Origin: a virus
Taxonomy: Duplodnaviria; Heunggongvirae; Uroviricota; Caudoviricetes
IMG/VR virus record: IMGVR_UViG_2740892431_000015
Reading direction: 5' to 3' (one strand)
DNA: 9,944 bases
The stretch's first letter is position 1. Each line of letters opens with the position of its first letter. A program made the translations under genes and the position numbers. This document shows, in pieces, positions 1 through 9,944 of the stretch. The notes below the pieces were generated by a model. The model saw nothing but the letters and a program-made list of their open reading frames with translations, ran no database searches and had not been told where the DNA came from.

Positions 1-27
1 CTAAATCAGTAAGTTGGCAGCATCACC
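1..27 (-). mobile_element. IS1 terminal inverted repeat (IRL-type end), 27-bp fragment; element body lies outside the window to the left
   Basis: Bases 1-27 CTAAATCAGTAAGTTGGCAGCATCACC are the exact reverse complement of the IS1 left terminus GGTGATGCTGCCAACTTACTGATTTAG as I remember it; perfect 27-bp inverted match with 9918-9944. Confidence 0.85.
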
Positions 28-36
28 GGGTGATTA

Positions 37-2142
37 ATGGCTAAAGCATGGAAAGATGTTATCGCCTCTCCACAGTATCAGGCGTTAGCACCAGAACAAA
101 AAGCGCAGGCTCAGGAGCAATACTTCAATGAAGTCGTGGCCCCGCAAGCCGGAGAAAGTGTAGCGCAGGCTAAGCAGGCTTTTTATGCTGCCTATCCACT
201 ACCATCAACGAATGAAATAGACCGATCCCAATCAGCAACTCAAAATATTCAACATACATCATCTGATAATTCTCTTGCGTCAGGGTATGCAAAGTTAGCT
301 ACTCAGCAAAGAGAGGGGCTTGAGCGTTCAGCAGAACAGGGAGCCAGTCTTGGGGCTGCGATGCGCGATGCTATAACAGGCGAAAGCCGAATGACTCCAG
401 AGATGGAGAGACTGCAAAATGTCGACCTTGCCCCAGAGTTAACCTCACTCAGCATGGGTGCTCTAAAAGCTCGATGGTCTCAACTTTTCGGCTCTGACGC
501 ATCTCAGGAAAAGATTCTTCAGAGCATGGGAGCGAAATTAAGGCAGGATGAGAAGGGTAACACTATCGTTTCCCTGCCATCCGGTGATTATGCTCTGAAC
601 AAGCCGGGTTTATCGCCGCAAGACGTGGCATCGTTTCTGGCTAATGCGCTGGCGTTTACACCAGCGGGCAGGGCTGGAACGGTGCTTGGTGCCATAGGAA
701 AATCAGCAGCTACAGATTTAGCACTACAGGGAGCCACCAGCCTTGCTGGTGGAGAAGATATTGATCCGTTACAAACGGTAATTTCTGCTGGCATTGGTGG
801 TATTGGTAAGGGGCTGGAAAATACAGCGAGTGCGGTTTCGAGGGCTGTTCGTGGTGATATGTCGCCTGAAGCAAAGGCTGCTGTCAACTTTGCATCGGAA
901 AGAAATCTGCCGTTAATGACCAGTGACATGCTGAAAGATAAAACCTTTATGCAGAGTCAGGCTCAGACATTAGGCGAAAGAGTTCCTTTTTTTGGAACCG
1001 GTAAGAATCGGCTGAATCAACAACAAGCACGAGAAAATTTAGTCAGAACATTTAGCGATGGTCTGGGTGGCATTTCTGATAAACAGCTTTATGAATCTGC
1101 GACTAAAGGGCAACAAAAATTCATTGAGGCAGCAGGAAAGCGATATAACCGCATAATTGACGCTATGGGGGATACCCCTGTCGATCTCTCAAACACGGTA
1201 AAAGCTATCGACAATCAGATTGCCGTGTTAAGCCGCCCGGGCAAATCTCAGGATAGAGCCGCGGTAAAAGTCTTGCAGCAATTTAAAGACGATATCACCA
1301 GCGGACCAAATGACCTGCGTCTGGCGAGGGAAAACAGAACCGATCTTCGAAAGCGATTTATGGCGTCATCTGACACTGTTGATAAAGATACGCTCCAGAA
1401 AGCCAGCGATATTATCTACAAGGCATATACGGCGGATATGAAAAAAGCCGTAGCCAAAAATCTTGGAGCAGACGAAGCCATTAATATGGCAAGGGTTGAT
1501 CGGTCATGGTCTAAATTCAATGACATGATGGGAAGAACGCGCGTTCAAAAGGCAATAGCCAGCGGTAAGGCCACGCCTGAGGATGTAACAAAACTCGTTT
1601 TTAGCCAAAGCCCATCAGAACGTTCTCAGCTTTACAGGCTTCTGGATGACAATGGTAGGCAAAACGCACGAGCAGCCATAGTTCAGAATGCTGTAGATAA
1701 GGCGACTGATCCGTCTGGAAATATCAGTGTTGAGAAGTTTATTAATGCGTTACACCGGAACAGGAAGCAATCAGCAACTTTCTTTAAAGGCGTACATGGA
1801 AAGGAACTGGACGGCGTTATTAAATACCTCAACGATACAAGACACGCGGCAAAAGCGAACGTTCAAAACTTAAATGGTCAGCAGCTTTATGGATTGTTAG
1901 TTGGTGGTGGCATCATAAACGCAGCAGTATTAGCGGGGATGCTAAAAACGGCTGCGTTTGTTGTTCCTGCTGCTGGTGCCGTAGGCGGAGCAGCGAAGGC
2001 ATACGAAAGCCCTGTTATACGAAATGCCTTGTTACGTCTGGCAAATACGCCAAAAGGTAGCACAGCATATGACAGAGCGATCAGTACGGTCACACAATCG
2101 CTCACCAGAGTCGCACAGGCATCACAAAAAGAAGCTCAATAA
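37..2142 (+). CDS. Large hypothetical protein (701 aa), Ala/Gln/Lys-rich and probably helical, with internal Gly-rich segment and C-terminal glycine-zipper-like hydrophobic hairpin; candidate membrane-active protein (bacteriocin-like toxin, or phage tape-measure/ejection protein)
   Basis: Long uninterrupted ORF in typical-GC DNA; ATG at 37 preceded by GGGTGA; in-frame TGA at 31-33 means the frame cannot extend upstream. Hydrophobic Gly/Ala-rich stretch LLVGGGIINAAVLAGMLKTAAFVVPAAGAVGGAAKAY near residues 623-662, followed by a ~40-aa polar tail. Antisense ORFs inside it are shadows. Confidence 0.8.
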   Translation: MAKAWKDVIASPQYQALAPEQKAQAQEQYFNEVVAPQAGESVAQAKQAFYAAYPLPSTNEIDRSQSATQNIQHTSSDNSLASGYAKLATQQREGLERSAEQGASLGAAMRDAITGESRMTPEMERLQNVDLAPELTSLSMGALKARWSQLFGSDASQEKILQSMGAKLRQDEKGNTIVSLPSGDYALNKPGLSPQDVASFLANALAFTPAGRAGTVLGAIGKSAATDLALQGATSLAGGEDIDPLQTVISAGIGGIGKGLENTASAVSRAVRGDMSPEAKAAVNFASERNLPLMTSDMLKDKTFMQSQAQTLGERVPFFGTGKNRLNQQQARENLVRTFSDGLGGISDKQLYESATKGQQKFIEAAGKRYNRIIDAMGDTPVDLSNTVKAIDNQIAVLSRPGKSQDRAAVKVLQQFKDDITSGPNDLRLARENRTDLRKRFMASSDTVDKDTLQKASDIIYKAYTADMKKAVAKNLGADEAINMARVDRSWSKFNDMMGRTRVQKAIASGKATPEDVTKLVFSQSPSERSQLYRLLDDNGRQNARAAIVQNAVDKATDPSGNISVEKFINALHRNRKQSATFFKGVHGKELDGVIKYLNDTRHAAKANVQNLNGQQLYGLLVGGGIINAAVLAGMLKTAAFVVPAAGAVGGAAKAYESPVIRNALLRLANTPKGSTAYDRAISTVTQSLTRVAQASQKEAQ

Positions 2143-2161
2143 CTGGTTAGCCATGGATGGC

Positions 2162-2776
2162 TTAGATATCTCTGCTGTCTCCATTAGGAAATAAAAGATA
2201 ATATGGATTTGCCTTTCTTGCTCTCCTTGCTTCACCCGGATACCTGTTAGTCAGTAGCTTGCATAATGAGCAGAGAACAACACTCAAGAAAATTCCGAAT
2301 GAGAAGATCAATATCTCACCAAAAATCAATGGCGATATTAAATTTTCAGGATTTAATGATAAGTCAATGTTAAAAACATATTGAGCAATACCAGTAAGTA
2401 TCAATAATATAATCCCTATGGAATACATTGCTGTTTCCCAAACATCAGACAGTCTATTTTTGAATTGTTCGCTGGAGTAGTAGTTTGTTATAAAGTCAGA
2501 AAAATCACTCTCATATGCATCATCTTTAGGTGATGTTAGAAATCCTCTGTCTCTCCATACCTTCTCCCAATTAGTCGATTCTTTTTTTAAGGAAAAATAA
2601 ATATGTATTCCCAAAAGGATAGCCAAAATTGGTGTTAGCTCTAAAAAATAGAATGTTATGGAATAAATAATACTGCCATGTTCAAACTCATCTGGGACTA
2701 TCATGTATGCACAAAAATAAATTGAAAAGTACACCATGCAGATAGTTAGCAATTCTTTAGTATCTTTTCTGCTCAC
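2162..2776 (-). CDS. Low-GC integral membrane protein, about four predicted TM helices (204 aa); candidate immunity or exclusion protein
   Basis: GTG start at 2776 with AGGGGG Shine-Dalgarno about 6 nt upstream on the minus strand; four hydrophobic stretches (LLTICMVYFSIYFCAYMIV, IIYSITFYFLELTPILAILLGIHIYF, AMYSIGIILLILTGIAQYVF, ISPLIFGEILIFSFGIFLSVVLCSLCKLL); strongly AT-rich compared with the flanking genes; convergent with the 701-aa ORF, stops 19 bp apart. Confidence 0.7.
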   Translation of the reverse strand: MSRKDTKELLTICMVYFSIYFCAYMIVPDEFEHGSIIYSITFYFLELTPILAILLGIHIYFSLKKESTNWEKVWRDRGFLTSPKDDAYESDFSDFITNYYSSEQFKNRLSDVWETAMYSIGIILLILTGIAQYVFNIDLSLNPENLISPLIFGEILIFSFGIFLSVVLCSLCKLLTNRYPGEARRARKANPYYLLFPNGDSRDI

Positions 2777-2885
2777 ACCAACCCCCTTTAGCGTTGTTTA
2801 GAATGGCAATCATCATATATCCAAGACATGGCATTTGGTACATAGCTTGGGTCGGGATTTCAAGTCCGCTCCCAGTTGATGGGGC

Positions 2886-3040
2886 CGTTACAGTACGCGC
2901 ATATCCGCTTTATGTGAAACAGGAAGATTTTTCTGATATCACTGCCACAGCAAAACACCAATTTCGTGACCAGTACGCGCGCGAGGGGTATCAGTTGCAA
3001 AATTTTTTGCAACTGCGTCCGACCAGTACGCACACGATGG
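2886..3040 (+). repeat. Three degenerate same-orientation copies of a CAGTACGCGCGCGA-type (CG)n-palindrome element
   Basis: cagtacgcgcatatcc at 2891-2906, gaccagtacgcgcgcgagggg at 2968-2988, gaccagtacgcacacgatgg at 3021-3040, in a ~520-bp stretch with no convincing gene. Confidence 0.6.
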
Positions 3041-3230
3041 CGGGGGATACCATAAAACTGTTCTCTACATGAGACAGAGTGGTGGTGATGTGTTGATTAT
3101 CGGCGTATATGCGCACAGGACGCGCTATGACGATGTTTTATGCGGGTACACCAATCACATGTATCTGGTGTGATAAATCGCGTTACATGACCTCTCATGT
3201 TGTGCTGGTGGTTATCACGACTTTCTGAAT

Positions 3231-3274
3231 CTGGCCTTTGCCTGATATTTTGCGACAAGTACGCGCGCGTAGCA
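3231..3274 (+). repeat. Copy of a ~45-bp repeat ending in GACAAGTACGCGCGCGTAGCA (contains perfect palindrome TACGCGCGCGTA)
   Basis: ctggcctttgcctgatattttgcgacaagtacgcgcgcgtagca; about 80 percent identical to the copy at 4608-4652; sits just beyond the 3' end of the minus-strand 73-aa gene. Confidence 0.65.
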
Positions 3275-3297
3275 TCGACAGCATACACATTGGATAT

Positions 3298-3519
3298 TCA
3301 TTTTGTGACCAATGCGATAAGTAGCGGGATAAGAATTGATAAAATCAACAGGCCGATGATCCACTTTTGATTTTCACTGGCCTTATCTCTATTTTCATCA
3401 ATCTTATCAATAATTCGACGCTCCAATCCGTGCATATCACCGCGAATGGCAATCATCTCATTGCGAACATCAGGGAAGTGGTTGGCTTGATGTTCAATGT
3501 GTGGCGTTCTGCCTTTCAT
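3298..3519 (-). CDS. Small tail-anchored membrane protein (73 aa): ~50-aa charged N-terminal region plus one C-terminal TM helix
   Basis: ATG at 3519 with GAGGA Shine-Dalgarno 6 nt upstream on the minus strand; C-terminal WIIGLLILSILIPLLIALV hydrophobic helix; 79 bp downstream of the RHH gene on the same strand, so probably co-transcribed. Confidence 0.55.
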   Translation of the reverse strand: MKGRTPHIEHQANHFPDVRNEMIAIRGDMHGLERRIIDKIDENRDKASENQKWIIGLLILSILIPLLIALVTK

Positions 3520-3598
3520 ATCTGATCCTCACCTATCGTCACTACCTGCTGGTGTATAAAGGTATTGGCCCAAGCAACTTTCCAATGGGCACTCATGT

Positions 3599-4054
3599 TT
3601 ATACGCTGACCTTACAATCAATCACTGCTTTTAGCTTTTCAGCATTGCTTCCCTGACGCTTCCACGCGCTGTAAATATCTTTATCCCACGCTTTACCAGC
3701 TTTTGTTTGATAGCCTGCTTCATTGATCCGTTCAGCTATCACACGCCCATTATCAAATCCCTGTTGGATGGTATCGGCAATGATCTTTATAACTGCCGTT
3801 TCGTTATATGGTTTTGGTGGGATGTTCGGCTTTCCGGCAATAAGCGACGCAGCGGCTTTTTCCATGCGCTCCACCAGCCCAAGCATTCGTGAATCAATAG
3901 ACTTTTCCGGCTGCCCCAGCTTCATGCGAATCGCATCAACAAGCCAGGAGGTTTTATCTCCTCCAGAAGCGAGAACAGACCGATTAAACTCATCCTGCAA
4001 TTCAGATGGGATGCGGAACGCGACCAGATTAGATTTGCTCATTGCAAAGACCAT
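3599..4054 (-). CDS. Ribbon-helix-helix (CopG/Arc/MetJ-like) DNA-binding protein with ~100-aa C-terminal extension (151 aa)
   Basis: N-terminus LVAFRIPSELQDEFNRSVLASGGDKTSWLVDAIRMKL fits the RHH pattern of beta-strand, helix, G-x-T/S turn, helix (my pattern recognition, not a search). First gene of a two-gene minus-strand unit; palindromic operator and iterons immediately upstream. Start may be the second ATG at 4042. Confidence 0.65.
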   Translation of the reverse strand: MVFAMSKSNLVAFRIPSELQDEFNRSVLASGGDKTSWLVDAIRMKLGQPEKSIDSRMLGLVERMEKAAASLIAGKPNIPPKPYNETAVIKIIADTIQQGFDNGRVIAERINEAGYQTKAGKAWDKDIYSAWKRQGSNAEKLKAVIDCKVSV

Positions 4055-4086
4055 ATCAGTGAGTAATATCCATACAGTATACCACT

Positions 4087-4103
4087 GTATAACACTGTTA
4101 TAC
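4087..4103. promoter_or_regulatory. Perfect 17-bp palindrome GTATAACACTGTTATAC, candidate operator in the promoter region of the minus-strand RHH operon
   Basis: Read directly: arms gtataaca / tgttatac around central C at 4095; lies 33-49 bp upstream of the minus-strand start codon at 4054. Confidence 0.4.
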
Positions 4104-4149
4104 GCTCAAATATCAGCCAGAAAATAACGGACCAATCACAAATCTATCG

Positions 4150-4268
4150 CTGTGTTGTTGGTTCAGAGCTGGGCTGTGTTGGTTCAAAATGAGTTGATGT
4201 TGGTTCAATATTTCAGAAAAAACACAATAAAAACAACAATCTTTACAAATTGAACCAACTGAACCAAC
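4150..4268. promoter_or_regulatory. Iteron-like array: three direct TGTTGGTTCA repeats at exact 21-bp spacing plus two tandem inverted TGAACCAAC copies, between divergent genes
   Basis: TGTTGGTTCA at 4156-4165, 4177-4186, 4198-4207; TGAACCAAC at 4251-4259 and 4260-4268; TATAAT at 4281-4286 just before the ATG at 4300. Confidence 0.55.
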
Positions 4269-4299
4269 TATGCTTATCTATATAATCTGAGAGGCAGAA

Positions 4300-4581
4300 A
4301 TGATAAGGGACAGGAAAGCTGAAGAGCTGGAGTCAAAAGGGCTATACCGGAGAGCTGCCGCACGATGGATGGAAGTCATGCTGTTATGCACCGAGGACGA
4401 TGATCGGGAATGGATAAAGCGCCGCCGTGAAACGTGTCTGGAGAACGTGAAGCGCCCGCCCGTGAAGGTTGAGGAATTTGGCGACCTGCATAAAGCTGTT
4501 ACCGAAACGCAACACCGCATGGGGATAGCGCAACCGAACGGTAACGCCTTCCGGTTAAATGGCGGCAAGAGGCAAAGGTAG
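4300..4581 (+). CDS. PerC-family-like transcriptional activator (93 aa)
   Basis: GAGAGG Shine-Dalgarno at 4289-4294; N-terminus MIRDRKAEELESKGLYRRAAARW resembles the PerC/Pch small-activator signature as I remember it; size fits (~90 aa). Family call is from memory, not a search. Confidence 0.65.
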   Translation: MIRDRKAEELESKGLYRRAAARWMEVMLLCTEDDDREWIKRRRETCLENVKRPPVKVEEFGDLHKAVTETQHRMGIAQPNGNAFRLNGGKRQR

Positions 4582-4585
4582 ACCA

Positions 4586-4607
4586 CCAGAGGGAAATCAT
4601 CCTCTGG
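4586..4607 (+). terminator. Possible weak intrinsic terminator hairpin after the PerC-like gene
   Basis: ccagagg (4586-4592) pairs with cctctgg (4601-4607), 8-nt loop; downstream T-content is only moderate. Confidence 0.25.
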
Positions 4608-4652
4608 CTGGCGGTTTCTGGTATTTCGGGACAAGTACGCGCGCGCGTAGCA
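4608..4652 (+). repeat. Second copy of the ~45-bp repeat ending in GACAAGTACGCGCGCGCGTAGCA (contains palindrome TACGCGCGCGCGTA)
   Basis: ctggcggtttctggtatttcgggacaagtacgcgcgcgcgtagca; same orientation as the 3231-3274 copy; lies just 3' of the PerC-like gene. Confidence 0.65.
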
Positions 4653-4878
4653 CCCAATCGGTGAGGAAATAGCGGCGACCTGAATGGTCAAAATCACAAC
4701 GCAGCTATCCCCGTAAGCAGCGCTTAACGGAATAGCAGTAACCTGAATCCAGTGGGGAGGGGGTAGTCAAATCTCTACAGCCCTGACTATCCGGGACTGC
4801 CCGCCCCATCGTTTTTTTATACCCGCGAAAAATGAAATTTAATCCGGGCGTGTTTCATTCTTCCAGAGGGTATGACGT

Positions 4879-5064
4879 ATGACACCACGCGAAATAGCCT
4901 TATTGACCATCGCCAAACTTGAGCACGGAGGCCACCAGCTTACACAGGCAGATCAACGGGAGATAGAACGATCAGTTAATGCCGATATAGCCCGGCGCGA
5001 CAGGTTCCGCGAAATGATGCGAGCACCTGCCTACCAGTGGAAGAAGCCAGCGCCGCGCAGGTAG
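4879..5064 (+). CDS. Small hypothetical protein (61 aa)
   Basis: ATG at 4879 with AGAGGG Shine-Dalgarno 8 nt upstream; same strand and immediately upstream of the pRiA4b-ORF3-like gene; no recognisable family. Confidence 0.4.
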   Translation: MTPREIALLTIAKLEHGGHQLTQADQREIERSVNADIARRDRFREMMRAPAYQWKKPAPRR

Positions 5065-5184
5065 ATATGGGATTATTCCACATGTAACTTATGCGTATTA
5101 AGCAAATTTCCTTTATTCACCTTTACAGAATTGTGAGTACGTCAGTATCGTTATCCTTCCGATTCGCATTTATTCAGGATTTGC

Positions 5185-5727
5185 ATGTACCAGCTAAAGA
5201 TAACCATCCGAGACAGCAAACCACCTATATGGCGGCGTGTGCTGGTTCCAGAGCAAATCCCCTTTAGTAAACTTCATGCCGTGATCCAGTTAGCTTTTGG
5301 CTGGAATGACGAACACCTGTATATGTTCGAGAAAGGGCGTAAAGGTGATCCAGGTAGCGAGTATCGCGTATGGGGTGAGGATGAAAGCATGGGTAACGCG
5401 GCAATCACGCCACTATGGGCGGCGCTCCAGAATGAGGGTGACAAGCTGGTTTACACGTATGACTTTGGCGACTGGTGGGATTGCGTCATTGTGCTGGAGA
5501 AGCAAACACACGATACGAGTAATCAGCCCATTAGCTGCCTGCGTGGGAAAGGCACCACCCCGGCGGAAAACTCAGGCGGCTTGCATGGTTACAATGAATT
5601 GCTATTACAGGCCAGAGAGTCTGATAATCCTGAGCAGGCCGAGATCCACAATTTCCTGATGCTGGATATTGAACGCCGGGTTTACGACCTGAGCCGCATC
5701 AACGACAGATTGCAGGCTATTAACTGA
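5185..5727 (+). CDS. pRiA4b ORF-3-like family protein (180 aa), the family of the IS1096 'TnpR'-like protein; function unknown
   Basis: N-terminus YQLKITIRDSKPPIWRRVLVPEQIPFSKLHAVIQLAFGWNDEHLYMF matches the conserved IWRR...LH.VIQ..(F/M)GW..HLY.F signature I recall for this family. Confidence 0.8.
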   Translation: MYQLKITIRDSKPPIWRRVLVPEQIPFSKLHAVIQLAFGWNDEHLYMFEKGRKGDPGSEYRVWGEDESMGNAAITPLWAALQNEGDKLVYTYDFGDWWDCVIVLEKQTHDTSNQPISCLRGKGTTPAENSGGLHGYNELLLQARESDNPEQAEIHNFLMLDIERRVYDLSRINDRLQAIN

Positions 5728-6079
5728 CCCGCATGTATTCACCTGATATTGCGTTGTCAGCGCCGCCAGTATCGCGCATAACAGCGCACTGACCGGGTAA
5801 ACCGTAGCGCACGACCGTTGCGTTAGTATCACCGCCGCGCCGTATCTGGCGCGATTCATACACTGTCACCCGCTCAAGCAGTCCACCAGCAACCATGCTT
5901 TCCAGTGTGCGCCGGGTTGATTCGAGCTGGTGACGCTTATCGAACGACACCATGCCATGAAGCAGGTAGGCCACACCCGACACATCGAACGGCGGCGCAC
6001 CAATCTCACCAGTCACCCATTCGAGGTTATCCGGTTCAAAGTAGCTAAGTATCTCTTTTTTGCGGCTGGTCATTCTCAT
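5720..6079 (-). CDS. Hypothetical protein (119 aa), possibly a winged-helix DNA-binding protein
   Basis: ATG at 6079 with AAGGAA ~11 nt upstream on the minus strand; imperfect 32-bp palindrome upstream; 3' end overlaps the convergent 5185-5727 gene by 8 bp. GC-rich region with long ORFs in several frames, so coding status is uncertain. Confidence 0.5.
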   Translation of the reverse strand: MRMTSRKKEILSYFEPDNLEWVTGEIGAPPFDVSGVAYLLHGMVSFDKRHQLESTRRTLESMVAGGLLERVTVYESRQIRRGGDTNATVVRYGLPGQCAVMRDTGGADNAISGEYMRVS

Positions 6080-6092
6080 GGCTGGCTGATTC

Positions 6093-6124
6093 CTTATTGT
6101 GGGATAGCACTATCATACAATAAG
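6093..6124. promoter_or_regulatory. Compound imperfect palindrome (CTTATTGT ... GATAG-CA-CTATC ... ACAATAAG), candidate operator upstream of the 119-aa minus-strand gene
   Basis: Read directly: 8-bp outer arms at 6093-6100 and 6117-6124 with a nested GATAG/CTATC inner palindrome; 26 of 32 positions symmetric. Confidence 0.4.
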
Positions 6125-6901
6125 TGGGTTAAAGGGAGAGCGTTACCGCCTGATATGCTGTATGAATAACAACCAAATTTCAGGGGCGGAAAAAGATATG
6201 GGGGTACTTTTGGGGGTATCTATAAAAAATGAACAATAAAAAAGGCAACAAAAACAAAGCTTATCGCCTATGTGTATTGTTCCTATTATCGCACAATCAA
6301 GAAAATCAATAACTTAGCTTAACTTCTCTAAGAAATTGTATCTTCTGTTATCACTTACAAACGCCTATACGTTGTTATGGGCTTTGGTAGTGTAACACGT
6401 ATGGGCGAGTAGTTCCCAGGCTCAACCTCGTAACAAGTTCCTTTGAAGCTGGAAGACGTGCCACCGTCTCTAAACCTTCTACCAAAACTCTTAGCAAGAT
6501 GTTCCACACCTGGCGCGGTGTCCAATGATGCTACACGTCGTGAGACGTTGCAGAGGATAAACAGGCTAAATGATGGGAAGAGTTTTAAGTGCAATAGTGG
6601 ATCAAAGCCCACCTCTTCAAAACCTAACTTGATCGGGAAAGAATCAAGCTCTAGCACGGTTTCGTCCACCGGAGTACAACGGGTGCCTGATAAGAGAAGA
6701 ACTGCTAAGACTTCATAGCTTTTGTGAAAAAGCCCTTTTAGTGGATACGCCTACGGCGCTTATTTTTTGGGGTAGCCCATCAAAGGCGCTTTATGGCTCC
6801 TATTGTCTTGAAAATGTATCTTTACTTGTATTGTGTTTTATGCGTAGTCTCCCTGTGTAGTATGTAACTTGTTAATTTTCATATGAATACAGAGGCACAC
6901 G

Positions 6902-7060
6902 ATGAAAAACATTGCAGCTATCAAACGTAATAACCGCAAGATTCACGCTCGTAAGTTCCTGTCTACGCCAGAAGGAAAAGCCTGGCTAGAGCGTAAACAG
7001 AGAGAGAACGAAGAAAGAAAACTCCTTAATGAGTTGAAATGGCTTAGAGAGGATTTCTGA
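6902..7060 (+). CDS. Small basic protein (52 aa), below the ORF-track threshold: MKNIAAIKRNNRKIHARKFLSTPEGKAWLERKQRENEERKLLNELKWLREDF
   Basis: ATG at 6902 with AGAGG Shine-Dalgarno at 6891-6895 (6-nt spacer); TGA at 7058-7060; sits alone in AT-rich DNA that is otherwise noncoding. Confidence 0.45.
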   Translation: MKNIAAIKRNNRKIHARKFLSTPEGKAWLERKQRENEERKLLNELKWLREDF

Positions 7061-7224
7061 AAATCTCCAGAACGCAACAGGACGCATTCTAACGCTATTT
7101 TCATTGCTTGGTATAGGGATGTATAGGTGATGTGTGTTTAATGCGTCTGTGCGCTTGTTTTGTGCCTTATTTTGCATTTTCATAATGCAGAAGAGAACAC
7201 GGAAAACCTTAAAATTAATTATTG

Positions 7225-7262
7225 GGGTATTTAAGGGTATTTTCAGGTGATTTAAGGGTATT
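7225..7262 (+). repeat. GGGTATT(T/A) direct repeats, including two 13-bp copies ATTTAAGGGTATT spaced 20 bp apart
   Basis: gggtattt at 7225-7232 and 7235-7242, gggtatta at 7256-7263; related GGGGGTA pair at 6199-6220. Confidence 0.5.
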
Positions 7263-7330
7263 AAACTTGATTTAATTGATTAAAATATAAACAGATAGTT
7301 GTGTATCTTATTGATTTATAAGGTTATTTT

Positions 7331-7390
7331 TAAATAAAGGTAAATAAAAAATAAATAGCCATAAATAGCTATAAATACATCTAAATACCT
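7331..7390 (+). repeat. Six tandem 10-bp units of (A/T)TAAATA-type, 10-bp helical phasing (probable intrinsically curved DNA)
   Basis: taaataaagg, taaataaaaa, ataaatagcc, ataaatagct, ataaatacat, ctaaatacct occupying consecutive 10-bp blocks 7331-7390. Confidence 0.55.
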
Positions 7391-7872
7391 ATATCCCTTC
7401 CCTTATGGCTAGATTGCGAGAGGTGCTTAACGCGATTTTCAGCGCCCCCCGATCTGGAAAATCCAGAATCCCCAAATATCAGCAAGGAATTTTCTTGCGT
7501 AATCAACATCGTTTTTACCTATTAAATCATTACACAGAAAGCCTTTCTGTAATGTCTCTCACTAAACTTTCACTAAACACGAGAATGATCGGTTTTATGT
7601 CGGATCAGATGCTAGAAACAGCACCACGTCTCACAAGGACTGTAAGCGATGAAACCAGTGTTTATGCGGGTGCAGGTCAAAATATAGGCCAAAATCAATT
7701 TAACATAATAAACGTAATATGCACTAAGGAACACATAGAACGCCTTGAGTTGATGTATCAGGGGAAAAAAGTGATGGATTTTTTACGTAGGAGCACGAGA
7801 GGGCTTCTGTTGACTTTTGTATGCTATGAAACATAATTAAAGGTTTTTTTGTTTTTATTGTGTGATGTAGTG

Positions 7873-7900
7873 GATTACACAGGGGAATAGATTAAATGGT
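7873..7900 (+). repeat. Iteron copy GATTACACAGGGGAATAGATTAAATGG (ATTACACAGG family)
   Basis: Shares the ATTACACAGGG-AATA...GATTA-TGG pattern with the tandem copies at 8224-8287. Confidence 0.45.
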
Positions 7901-8223
7901 GTTCTGTTTATACAGGTTTATTTGTTAGATCAACAATTTGGCATTTCTAAACAGATGTTTGAACGTTGCCAAATGTCTTGACAACACAAGAAAAGGGCTT
8001 GCTATGCCACGCATTACACGAAATAAGGCTGTAAAAACAAAATAAATTTTAAAATTTGCACAAACGAGAAAACTCGTTAAGAAACAAGCAGAACAATTTT
8101 TAGCCAACAATTTCTGATGGTGCTCTGTAGGCCGCACTACACAAGGATTTGCGAAAGTGATGTAAAAGTGAAGAAAGTAAGAATTGCACTTTTAAGCTAC
8201 TTTTCATTGAATTTTTAGTATGG

Positions 8224-8287
8224 AATTACACAGGAATAAGTTAGGGATATTCTATGATTTACACAGGGAATATAGGGGATTATGGCA
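8224..8287 (+). repeat. Tandem pair of ~32-bp imperfect direct repeats (ATTACACAGG family iterons)
   Basis: aattacacaggaataagttagggatattctatg (8224-8256) and atttacacagggaatataggggattatggcac (8256-8287); further single cores at 8013-8020, 8136-8146, 8303-8311 and 9405-9415. Confidence 0.55.
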
Positions 8288-8459
8288 CACACATAGAAAG
8301 GCATTACACAGAGTGAGTGCTATGTGATGATTGGTAGTAACGGTAGGTCATAGTGAGCTAGGGGGTAGGTCACTGTGAACTACAATAAGACTATTAATAA
8401 AACTATATTAGATTATTAATTAGATCATAATAATAATATTCTTTATATCTATATATATG

Positions 8460-8880
8460 ATCTTTTGCCTTCCGGCGTTAGCTTCACTCTCTGGCAAGCA
8501 GCCTTACTCCGCTACCTTTCGGGCTTCGTGGCTGGCCCGTTCCGCTCACACCGAAAGCAAAGCGTTACTTTCTTCGTGTAACTTCGTTGGCGGTAACGCC
8601 CACGAAGAAATCTATTGCGCTGTGCGCAGTAAGAGTAATCACCTAACCAATCATACTGATTGCTTATGTGTTAACTCTCTCTAACTCTTAATTACCCTCC
8701 TACATTTAATAACTCTGTTATTCTCTGTAGTTGTGTAATTACTCGAAGAGAGAGCGGCTAAAGCTCAATTACACTCTGCTTTCCTCGTGTAATTTCACTA
8801 AGCCTCAATACAATTTCACTTCCTACATTCTGTAGTCGTGTAATTGTTTTCGGTGGAAAAGCCAGAGGCGACACCGAAAG
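8460..8880 (+). other. GC-enriched structured island inside AT-rich DNA; candidate structured ncRNA or single-strand initiation/origin hairpins
   Basis: Hairpin 8516-8557 (ctttcgg / ccgaaag); hairpin 8570-8609 (9-bp stem ttcttcgtg / cacgaagaa enclosing GGCG-GTAA-CGCC, a GNRA tetraloop); hairpin 8848-8879 (tttcggtg / caccgaaa); 10-mer ACACCGAAAG repeated at 8548-8557 and 8871-8880. The 75-aa ORF here has no ribosome-binding site. Confidence 0.3.
8721..8845 (+). repeat. Two direct repeats TTCT(CT)GTAGT(T/C)GTGTAATT carrying the iteron core in reverse orientation
   Basis: 8721-8740 and 8828-8845; further reverse-orientation cores CGTGTAA(C/T) at 8575-8582 and 8785-8793. Confidence 0.45.
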
Positions 8881-8888
8881 AGAATTCT

Positions 8889-8950
8889 GATCTTATTAAT
8901 CTTATCTATCTTAGTTAATCTTCTTACTTATCTTACTTACTTTATCTACT
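8889..8950 (+). repeat. Degenerate 9-bp tandem repeat (ATCTTAnnn) in a G-depleted pyrimidine-rich tract
   Basis: TCTTA at 8890, 8899, 8908, 8921, 8930 (mostly exact 9-bp spacing); only one G between 8889 and 8965 on the top strand. Confidence 0.5.
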
Positions 8951-9481
8951 TTATTATTAATAATAGCTTTATAAGCTCTCTGTGTAGCTCTCTGACGCAA
9001 GAAACAGCATTCAGGAAGGGAATCACCTTAGAAAAGGTGTTCTTTGCGTCATAATGTGTTTTATGAAGGATTCAGAGGTGTTTCATAACAGGAATGTATA
9101 GAGAATACTTTAGGTAATTAAAAATAAGGGGTCTAAATGCTTCTCTAACAGCATTAAGCAGGGTAGGGAATGGAAACGCATTGCCTACATATAATAAACT
9201 CACTACAGGGCTTTACAGGGCGTTTTATAAAGTGACTCTCTGTTTTATATCTACAATCACCTTTTCATATACCTAACAAATACAAAATAAGCCCCTTAAA
9301 TAAGCCTCTGGCGAGCTAAACAGACATTACATAAGAGAATGTATTGCTTTTATCAAAACTTCGTTAGAACGCGTTTTAGAGCGTTTTAGCGGATAATGAA
9401 GAATAGCACTACACAGAAGAGCACGAATTGCTAAGACAAATTATAACATGCTGAAAAAGATCGATTTTTTCGAAAAGGGTA

Positions 9482-9510
9482 TTGACAAATGTTTCTTTAT
9501 ATGTAATAAT
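9482..9510 (+). promoter_or_regulatory. Sigma70-type promoter candidate with extended -10 (TTGACA, 17-bp spacer, TGtAATAAT)
   Basis: Consensus -35 TTGACA at 9482-9487; TG at 9503-9504 and AATAAT at 9505-9510; would give a ~105-nt leader to the ATG at 9624. Confidence 0.45.
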
Positions 9511-9623
9511 AGGTATTAGAGGGACAGAAAAACATTCTTCTCTAAATAATCAAAATCAATGCACTTTGAAGCCGTCAGGCTTGCAAGGTGTTTTATTTCT
9601 TTTAACTGAATAAGGAGTTTTTT

Positions 9624-9812
9624 ATGAAATGGTTTACACCGGAGCACGTCGTAAAGGCATTTAAAAAAGGTGAGCTTACACGCCACCAAATAGTAATGAA
9701 TCGTAATATGGCAAGGAGTCGAGGTTATCCAGAGCGAGCAGCTTGCTTCAATGAAGCACTCAAGATTATTGATGAACTAAGAAAAAATGAAAAAGAATCT
9801 GAAACAGAGTAA
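9624..9812 (+). CDS. Small hypothetical protein (62 aa)
   Basis: Strong AAGGAG Shine-Dalgarno at 9612-9617 with 6-nt spacer; candidate promoter upstream; followed 19 bp later by a second gene with its own ribosome-binding site. Confidence 0.6.
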   Translation: MKWFTPEHVVKAFKKGELTRHQIVMNRNMARSRGYPERAACFNEALKIIDELRKNEKESETE

Positions 9813-9831: not shown

Positions 9832-9939
9832 ATGAGCGAAGCTACAGAAAAGAAAAGACAACCACGCACTTGCTTTCATATTCCTGATGAAGTATTTCAG
9901 GTGTTGTTTAAAGAAGCGGTGATGCTGCCAACTTACTGA
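9832..9939 (+). pseudogene. Gene truncated by IS1 insertion: native N-terminal ~28 codons (MSEATEKKRQPRTCFHIPDEVFQVLFKEA) run into the IS1 end and stop at TGA 9937-9939
   Basis: ATG at 9832 with AGGAG at 9821-9825; the reading frame continues into the IS1 terminal repeat (from 9918), so the native C-terminus is missing. Confidence 0.5.
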
Positions 9940-9944
9940 TTTAG
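9918..9944 (+). mobile_element. IS1 terminal inverted repeat (IRL-type end), 27-bp fragment; element body lies outside the window to the right
   Basis: GGTGATGCTGCCAACTTACTGATTTAG matches the IS1 left terminus as I remember it and is the exact inverse of bases 1-27. Confidence 0.85.

Follow-up and report, generated by a model that had tools for sequence, protein, structure and literature searches.

The stretch of DNA analysed here, hereafter the window, is the IMG/VR virus record IMGVR_UViG_2740892431_000015 (Caudoviricetes; 9,944 nucleotides), and the interval of interest covers its positions 6130-9620. The best-supported interpretation, drawn from sequence comparison, is that this interval represents a non-coding region with control functions, forming the left end of a ~13-kb phage-derived island (hereafter the element) integrated at the tRNA-Thr gene thrW of Escherichia coli. 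The core of the region, positions 8342-8460 (~120 bp), is probably an initiator-dependent origin of replication built in the style of phage lambda, and further non-coding modules, arranged as a mosaic, fill the remainder of the 3.3 kb. A preliminary description of the window, made from its letters alone, had proposed an iteron-type replication or partition origin of 3.5 kb, packed with repeats of an ATTACAC(A/G)G core. An origin-like site is indeed present, but its iterons are the palindromes at 8342-8382 and not the ATTACAC repeats, and it measures ~120 bp rather than 3.5 kb; both the 22-bp-spaced palindromes at 8342-8382 and the 88% A+T stretch at 8384-8460 had escaped notice.

The candidate origin

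Two adjoining features make up the candidate origin:

8342-8382, unstranded: two type-A iterons, GGTAGGTCATAGTGAGCTA and GGTAGGTCACTGTGAACTA, imperfect palindromes whose starts (8342 and 8364) lie 22 bp apart.
8383-8460, unstranded: A+T-rich stretch, candidate DNA-unwinding element; 8384-8460 (77 bp) is 88% A+T.

The type-A unit, GGTAGGTCAYWGTGARCTA, is 19 bp long; the window holds two copies and strain KSC64 (locus L002) five, at 22-23 bp spacing, the relatives of the same initiator class carrying from two to six. The arrangement recurs in every variant: ~19-bp palindromic units at 22-23 bp spacing lie to the right of a conserved left block and are followed by ~60-80 bp of A+T-rich DNA. In each of the seven loci measured, which represent both of the right-flank types described below, the 60-nt core after the array has an A+T content of 87-90%. 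Beside type A, four further types of unit are found:

Iteron type B: CCCACAGAATTCTGTTA
Iteron type C: CCCTATCAAnnnTGATA
Iteron type D: ACCTAGGAAATGAGTTCC
Iteron type E: TGTAACGnnnCGTTACA

Some arrays (L033, L031, L024, L043, L056 and L079) are compound and mix iteron types, L033 reading A2 B2 C2 D4 E2, and single 'vestigial' units of a non-cognate type are present in most arrays.

According to the proposed mechanism, dimers of a winged-helix initiator would bind the 19-bp palindromes at 8342-8382 and, the iterons being spaced by about two helical turns, would sit on one face of the helix. Their binding would open the adjoining 77-bp A+T-rich stretch (8383-8460), and the C-terminal domain of the initiator would recruit helicase or replisome. 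The initiator gene would be expressed 1.7 kb to the right of the origin, in an operon read from the promoter at 9482-9510. I infer these steps of DNA binding, unwinding and replication from the anatomy of the sequence and from the pairing of initiators with arrays reported below.

The putative initiator

As the preliminary description had stated, neither a Rep nor a Par gene is found in the window. It had also proposed that loci free of the insertion sequence IS1 be checked for an adjacent rep gene, and in such relatives an initiator gene begins ~140 bp beyond the position of the right-hand IS1 (L001 18925), that is, just outside the window. The gene is absent from the window only because the right-hand IS1 cut the operon ~140 bp before it.

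In each element the initiator is a protein of 190-240 amino acids (aa), encoded ~1.7 kb to the right of the array and behind the operon promoter, whose N-terminal winged-helix domain belongs to one of several classes no more than 32% identical to one another. The four N-terminal classes examined all hit phrog_270 ('replication initiation protein', E 1e-9 to 7e-6); each of the four also matches at least one 'replication initiation O-like' PHROG family, weakly (E 1e-4 to 1e-5), and three of them match a DnaD-like loader family. On the class-1 initiator (WP_001570987), the only Pfam family reported is HTH_36. A search of a large protein database with the initiator returned nothing except near-identical E. 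coli proteins with uninformative names, and a profile scan of genome contigs with the initiator alignment retrieved two loci only.

Initiator classes and array types are paired

Loci were gathered from E. coli genomes and 22 IMG/VR contigs by means of the invariant 25-mer GAAAGTGATGTAAAAGTGAAGAAAG; a second, independent set of 64 metagenome contigs yielded 30 loci. In the first of these sets, wherever both parts could be read (28 of 28 loci), class 1 goes with array type A, class 2 with D, class 3 with E and class 4 with B. A case in point concerns the chimeric initiators of two loci, in which a class-4 N-terminus is joined to a class-1-like C-terminus: the array is of type B, matching the N-terminus. 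Along the same line, reassortment of the right flank (0.45 kb), of the 62-aa gene type and of the C-terminal domain of the initiator leaves the pairing intact, and classes 1, 2 and 3 are each found with both right-flank types, their arrays being kept.

In the metagenome set, 26 of the 30 loci are concordant, two are concordant in modified form and two are discordant. The modified matches are a variant class-1 initiator (87% identical to class 1) whose palindrome is altered in a corresponding way, and an array of compound make-up with two A units among its members. In addition, type-C arrays occur in eight loci of this set, all of which encode an N-terminal class not seen before, the fifth; here a prediction from the array was borne out in an independent sample. 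Overall, five classes and one sub-variant go with five array types in ~66 loci, with two exceptions. The relation between initiator and iterons is a cognate one by association, and such pairing is what one would expect an initiator and its iterons to show.

A second repeat family and structured arms

The ATTACAC repeats are not the iterons of the candidate origin, and they are real. The exact core ATTACACRG is present in four copies against 0.19 expected, and with one mismatch in 12 copies (11 of them within the region) against 4.06 expected; none of 200 shuffled sequences reaches either count, so the claim that the core exceeds chance is upheld, and the 'at least a dozen' copies reported before are found once a mismatch is allowed, the exact ones being four. 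The shorter TTACAC occurs 18 times against 4.4 expected, a number that no shuffle reaches. The copies that the preliminary description placed in reverse orientation were recovered in place, as were its tandem arrays of 9 and 10 bp; its three ~30-bp iterons were overstated, the part they share being only ~16-20 nt (ATTACACAGG(G)AATA...). The features concerned are:

7868-8341, plus strand: left arm of the origin, of which 8096-8340 is conserved in all variants.
7874, 8013, 8183, 8225 and 8303, plus strand: left-arm ATT[AG]CAC sites, with degenerate ones at 8136 and 8258.
8461-8900, minus strand: right arm, of flank type W, in which a long-range helix closes a series of hairpins.
8576, 8733, 8787 and 8838, minus strand: right-arm ATTACAC sites, with one plus-strand copy at 8769.
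Oligonucleotide form of this second, ATTACAC-type repeat family: ATTACACAGGGAATA.

The ATT[AG]CAC motif is identical across initiator classes, and three of its sites lie within the block conserved in all variants. Among 24 distinct origin regions, the left arm holds 88 plus-strand copies and no minus-strand copy, the right arm 55 on the minus and nine on the plus strand, and the orientation is the same in both non-homologous right flanks. ATT[AG]CAC is a genuine second repeat family, converging on the A+T core from both sides; its sites most likely bind an accessory factor other than the initiator.

In the right arm of the window, the ATTACAC copies lie in the stems of repeated hairpin modules. 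Folding z-scores of this arm are -9.2 (RNA, minus strand), -6.6 (RNA, plus strand) and -6.7 (single-stranded DNA, plus strand), and the alternative right flank, albeit non-homologous, is also structured (z -5.3 on both strands). The homologues of the right arm (n=11) are 96-100% identical and display no compensatory changes, so that RNA, single-stranded DNA and cruciform are indistinguishable. The hairpin-rich arm may supply priming or loading signals, or an RNA.

Two further lines of argument were abandoned. Purine and GC skew, considered as an argument for an origin, is seen in flank type W only and not in the alternative flank, and integrase arm sites were rejected as an explanation of the ATTACAC repeats since these lie 1.2-2.6 kb from the attachment (att) core. 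Incidentally, ATTRCAC is enriched in the early region of phage phi92, at gene junctions.

Alternative explanations and points against an origin

The main rival of an origin is a repressor-operator module, in which the winged-helix protein would be a repressor, the palindrome arrays operators of a promoter in the A+T stretch, and the classes immunity types; the regulated product could be the structured transcript of the right arm. Phage immunity regions do show matched classes of repressor and operator, palindromic sites suit dimeric repressors, the NCBI name of the protein is 'transcriptional regulator' ('LexA family' for one allele), and a weak promoter-like site is found in the A+T stretch on the minus strand (8451-8424). 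However, the four classes tested match PHROG replication initiators or loaders and no repressor family. Three to six sites at 22-23 bp followed by ~90% A+T are origin-like, whereas operators usually number two or three and overlap a promoter beside the regulated gene; here the operon promoter is 1.1 kb away from the array. Moreover, an N-terminal specificity domain carried on exchangeable C-terminal domains is what is known from lambda O and from the RepA of the PLEs (elements akin to phage-inducible chromosomal islands). Because of the initiator-family matches, the geometry of the array and its distance from any regulated promoter, a repressor-operator module is less likely than an origin, and I regard it as unlikely.

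Could the ATTACAC(A/G)G repeats themselves be the iterons of the initiator, or a centromere for a partition protein? They exceed chance, and their strict orientation towards the A+T core holds in 24 origin regions and with two non-homologous right flanks. Yet they are the same in all initiator classes and therefore cannot carry the specificity implied by the variable N-terminal domains, the right-arm copies sit in hairpin stems, and no ParA, ParM or TubZ-type gene is found in the element. A search for a partition motor or centromere-binding gene in the annotation of the element and by domain scans gave none, the only hint being a weak TubR-like winged-helix match (E 0.04). As the element is, in addition, chromosomally integrated, the partition or centromere site of the preliminary description is not sustained, and either role for these repeats is very improbable. 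A pac- or cos-type packaging region, with the arrays and flanking repeats recognised by a terminase small subunit, is more improbable still. Repeats in both orientations about a central site do occur in cosB and pac sites, a segment resembling a phage terminus lies nearby, and no terminase gene of its own was seen in the element; but the arrays pair with an initiator-like protein and not with a terminase small subunit, and the terminus-like segment is a separate module, 0.6-1.0 kb away. Equally hard to credit is a decayed prophage with repeats that are functionless at present. The copy in the window is flanked and cut by IS1, contains a decayed open reading frame (ORF) and has an array reduced to two units; against decay, the architecture is kept at the thrW, tRNA-Leu and tRNA-Gly sites, matches to the region are present in 764-1003 of the 5426 complete E. 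coli genomes, recombination has not uncoupled array type from protein class, and lytic phages hold recently captured binding domains, with up to 100% nucleotide identity over 312 nt.

The origin, too, has evidence to reckon with. Neither Pfam nor NCBIfam assigns the initiator to an initiator family, a profile search of the PDB returned weak, generic winged-helix matches only, and databases name the protein 'transcriptional regulator' or 'hypothetical'. A DnaA box (TTATCCACA, up to one mismatch) is absent from 6130-9620, as the preliminary description had rightly remarked, and the origin is neither inside nor directly beside the initiator gene, unlike that of lambda and of most iteron plasmids. 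The window copy has two iterons only and no initiator gene. Two loci, L042 and L058, are discordant, and the loci are mutually related, so that the independent pairings amount in effect to ~5-6 classes together with the recombinant backgrounds. All these points count against an initiator-dependent origin at 8342-8460. With the operon cut by IS1 ~140 bp before the initiator gene and two iterons left, the window copy may be inactive.

The element and its setting

Positions 6130-9620 are 99.9% identical to the E. coli chromosomal record NZ_OZ547117, in which proA is followed by thrW, by an island with its own integrase (window 1-6280) and then by the region under study; to its right lie small genes, then the genes for a helix-turn-helix protein, a major capsid protein, a protein of 613 aa and a 'baseplate' protein, and finally a leftward integrase gene and yagU. 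Strain KSC64 is without the first island and its homology begins inside the annotated thrW (L002 15001 = window 6281), which makes 6281-6297 the left boundary of a second, ~13-kb element. The preliminary description had let its interval start at 6130; its first 150 nt (6130-6280) belong to the other island, which ends at the degenerate thrW copy. The boundaries are:

6281-6297, plus strand: degenerate 3' end of thrW, TCCTATTATCGCACAAT, attachment-site core and left boundary of the element.
6243-6269, minus strand: terminator-like hairpin at the end of the neighbouring island A, outside the element.
9918-9944, unstranded: terminal inverted repeat of IS1, the exact reverse complement of window 1-27.

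The window consists of chromosomal E. coli DNA bounded by inverted IS1 ends, an IS1A copy being annotated at the left in L001. Judging from annotation and domain scans, the element encodes an integrase, a replicon, a capsid protein and only two tail genes; it runs from att through the non-coding region, the small genes and the initiator gene to the capsid and tail genes and, last, the integrase. Relatives with the same layout are found at tRNA-Leu and tRNA-Gly genes. Parts of 6130-9620 are present in 1003 of 5426 complete E. coli genomes, nearly always in the chromosome, and at least 80% of the interval in 206; for 6298-9620 the numbers are 764 of 5426 and 209, and O104:H4 and O26 strains are among the genomes with matches to the region. 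A plasmid origin was rejected, just three plasmid records matching the region and all partially; one is a true plasmid, the other two are chromosome-sized. As an aside, the title of L008 is 'Bacillota MAG', yet the E. coli element is present in it (97-99% identity), and it is probably a mislabelled public record.

The region was correctly described as AT-rich and gene-poor: its G+C content is 0.31-0.41 over 7000-9600 against 0.45-0.56 further left, and the only RefSeq coding sequence within 6130-9620 encodes 52 aa (6902-7060), the next, of 62 aa, starting at 9624. None of the ten ORFs of the region matches Pfam, and against PHROGs the same ten give two marginal matches only (E 0.015 and 0.025). 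The largest ORF (143 aa, 7405-7836) was rejected as a gene, as it is frameshifted in five relatives and its substitutions are spread evenly across codon positions. Scans of the window for tRNAs and against Rfam found nothing.

Comparison of loci resolves the region into the left-end module M1, the cassette M2, the conserved left block (8096-8340), a short hypervariable stretch, a right flank of one of two unrelated types (~0.45 kb each) and a pre-promoter block. Beside the origin and its arms, the following features were recorded:

6298-7055, unstranded: conserved left-end module M1, found by comparison among loci, non-coding save for the 52-aa gene.
6902-7060, plus strand: 52-aa gene, annotated in RefSeq and probably real because five of seven substitutions among loci fall at third codon positions.
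7166-7881, unstranded: exchangeable cassette M2, with 10-bp phased repeats (7225-7262 and 7351-7377), the phage-terminus-like element and the decayed ORF.
8890-8957, unstranded: 9/13-bp tandem array, CTTATCTTACTTA.
9210-9481, plus strand: conserved block upstream of the operon promoter, including 1.9 copies of GCGTTTTAGA (9371-9389).
9482-9510, plus strand: sigma-70-type promoter candidate, TTGACA-17-AATAAT with TG before the second hexamer (11 of 12 matches).
9624-9812, plus strand: 62-aa gene, the first of the operon, with an AAGGAG ribosome-binding site at 9612-9617.
9832-9917, plus strand: 5' part of the second operon gene (56 aa; ATG at 9832), truncated by the right-hand IS1.

M1 is 97-98% identical among thrW loci and 92% identical in L009, and its 1-nt indels exclude a conserved ORF; one part of it, 6348-6805, is also found in an element integrated at a tRNA-Leu gene. 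M2 is replaced, in O104:H4 and other variants, by a cassette with a Hin/Gin-type DNA invertase gene. These serine invertase genes are located at L003 13324-13875, L011 3334-3873 and L009 4012-4563, in L003 and L011 directly upstream of the phage-terminus-like segment; around the invertase cassettes, no invertible segment could be recognised, and no remnant of an invertase or of other cassette genes was found in the window. Short tandem units vary in copy number: ATAAATAGCC (7351-7377) is present in 2.7 copies here and 4.7 in L010, and GCGTTTTAGA, ~100 bp upstream of the operon promoter, in 1.9 copies here and 3.0 in L010. The latter unit could be an operator of that promoter.

The neighbouring island has peculiarities of its own. 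Window 37-2142 is an orphan gene for a DNA-ejection protein of the P22 gp16 family, beside IS1. A second iteron-like cluster lies at 4157-4268, between a 151-aa gene on the minus strand and a PerC-family gene on the plus strand; it has GTTGGTTCA three times at an exact 21-bp spacing and two inverted tandem copies, that is, five copies against 0.08 expected. Four same-strand copies of GACMAGTACGCRCRCG occur at window 2968, 3021, 3254 and 4630, where chance would give none.

Links to Stephanstirmvirinae phages

The whole region was compared with 50,697 phage records, and a single match was found, within the M2 cassette:

7404-7500, minus strand: element resembling the boundary of a phage terminal repeat, made up of a 46-mer (7408-7453), a hairpin (7454-7466), CCCCAAATATCA (7470-7481) and a second hairpin (7482-7498).

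The 46-mer is identical at 44 of 46 positions to phi92 318-363, which straddles the end of the annotated 343-bp left terminal repeat of that phage (phi92 343/344, equivalent to window 7428-7431), and Citrobacter and Klebsiella relatives show weaker matches of the segment, up to 78 nt long. In phi92, Tr1, a Klebsiella phage and L011 the second hairpin persists although its sequence differs. Of 73 distinct loci, 30 have the core of the segment and 11 a variant; in the alternative invertase cassette, the equivalent segment is 81% identical to the terminal region of Phapecoctavirus phages, in whose records it occurs twice each. The terminus-like cassette is a candidate signal by which the packaging or expression machinery of a helper phage might recognise the element. 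Four 'Campylobacter phage' records (MG065639, MG065645, MG065656 and MG065689; 146 kb) also carry the phi92-like 46-mer, and their labels are probably wrong.

Homologies are found at the protein level as well. The Dit-like protein of the element is 58-61% identical to the tail-tube initiator of Justusliebigvirus, and its 613-aa protein 30-32% identical to the tape measure of the same genus; the two genes are neighbours in the element and lie ~0.6 kb apart in the phage records listing both. Furthermore, four lytic phages of the Stephanstirmvirinae encode two tandem N-terminal domains of the initiator, followed by a C-terminal domain:

inny gp184 (L102 3414-4517): class 3 (88%) and class 2 (89%).
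muut_154 (L104 328-1326): class 5 (88%) and class 2.
Mt1B1_P17 QNJ49226 (L103 514-1500): class 4 and class 2, the class-4 part being 100% identical over 104 aa / 312 nt.
BI-EHEC protein: 72% identical to residues 55-366 of inny gp184, the domain that was typed being class 2 (90%).

In inny gp184, muut_154 and QNJ49226, class 2 is always the second module, and none of the three has class 1; a phage protein with the class-1 domain of the window was not found. Since the class-2 domain is carried by those four phages only (six records), the fusion is regarded as an accessory gene and not as the phages' own initiator. The C-terminal domain scores 22.3 bits with MUG113, exactly the gathering score, and 15.5 bits with T5orf172, below the cut-off; ORFs that bear the annotation of a homing endonuclease or a GIY-YIG nuclease share 44-51% identity with it, and searches of a large protein database and of PDB sequences gave no match. 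It might be a nuclease of the GIY-YIG type, these homologies giving a faint indication. The fusions, built like the Odn protein of phage ICP1 discussed below, are an independent hint that the N-terminal domains act at an origin.

Wider reading and significance

The classes of initiator and iteron, their mosaicism and the phage chimeras suggest, at the level of sequence, an arms race between phage and parasite over the origin. On balance, I lean slightly towards a wider interpretation, in which the thrW, leuX and glyU islands of E. coli form a family not described before, made up of satellites or of defence islands derived from satellites; the large lytic Stephanstirmvirinae (phi92-like and phAPEC8-like phages) would be their helpers. 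The origin of the islands would be the target of dual-specificity phage nucleases made from captured initiator domains, from which the islands would escape by swapping modules of initiator domain and iterons (at least five classes), and the terminus-like cassette would mimic the terminal-repeat boundary of the helper, possibly for packaging. The element is a small integrated one with its own integrase and replicon, partial virion genes and links to helper phages, as in phage satellites. A full-text search of the literature, of incomplete coverage, returned no paper linking satellites with the Stephanstirmvirinae or describing an Odn-like system in E. coli.

If this model is right, it offers a tractable E. 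coli system with an island parasitising large lytic phages, orthogonal initiator-origin pairs numbering five or more, and phage nucleases apparently retargeted by domain capture, the class 1 of the window being the one class for which no phage nuclease has been seen so far. The region is frequent in complete E. coli genomes, yet its genes are annotated as hypothetical, and a lesson for annotation is that an 'empty' stretch of 3.3 kb can be a control region that has structure and an origin open to definition. Therapeutic and biocontrol cocktails include phi92-like and phAPEC8-like phages; islands interfering with such phages, and phage counter-genes, would affect host range. Orthogonal initiator-iteron pairs and two-domain nucleases could also serve as engineering parts.

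Comparison with known systems

In iteron plasmids of the F, P1, R6K, RK2 or pSC101 type, DnaA boxes lie by the iterons and the rep gene adjoins the array; neither arrangement is found here. The lambda ori is a closer model, with several ~19-bp dyad iterons at about two-turn spacing, then an A+T-rich stretch and then palindromic DNA, and lambda O has an N-terminal specificity domain, varying among relatives, and a C-terminal recruiting domain. The element shares the ~19-bp dyad repeats at two-turn spacing, the adjacent A+T-rich region, the order of iterons, A+T stretch and palindromic DNA, and a two-domain initiator of varying specificity. It differs from lambda in that its origin is intergenic, 1.7 kb upstream of the initiator gene and not inside it, in that its initiator falls outside Phage_rep_O in Pfam, in that no P-like loader was recognised, and in the additional oriented ATTRCAC arms.

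The phage-inducible chromosomal islands (PICIs), which include the Staphylococcus aureus pathogenicity islands (SaPIs), resemble the element in being chromosomal islands related to phages; both have an initiator specific to the island and, matching it, an iteron origin with an A+T-rich region. A PICI initiator is fused to a helicase, with the ori directly downstream of rep, and integrase and alpA/stl are at the tRNA-proximal end, whereas the element has a small winged-helix initiator, an ori upstream of its gene and the integrase at the far end. Like the capsid-forming PICIs, it is a small island encoding its own major capsid protein; unlike them, it has no recognised terminase, portal or protease genes, and it has homologues of a myovirus tape measure and tail-tube initiator.

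There is likeness, too, with the PLEs of Vibrio cholerae, which have modular pairs of RepA_N domain and ori (Barth et al. 2021, eLife, PMC8263062), and with their phage ICP1, whose Odn copies the binding domain of the PLE RepA, binds PLE iterons and cuts the origin (PMC8263062). In both systems, the origin consists of semi-palindromic iterons inside a large, variable non-coding region and is exchanged together with the N-terminal domain of the initiator, and in both a lytic phage encodes a chimera of an initiator-derived DNA-binding domain with a T5orf172/GIY-YIG-type domain, cutting being a prediction in the present case. The differences concern the host and the phages (E. coli and Stephanstirmvirinae here), the initiator, which is not detectably RepA_N (HTH_36 only in Pfam), the number of specificity classes (at least five here, two in PLE) and the captured domains, two in tandem at 88-100% identity here against 42% for Odn. 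As for RepA_N, it was absent from Pfam scans of the class-1 initiator and of the class-2 and class-3 domains of inny gp184, the three classes scanned. To sum up, if the wider interpretation is true, the islands and their phages would be the E. coli counterpart of the PLE-ICP1-Odn system.

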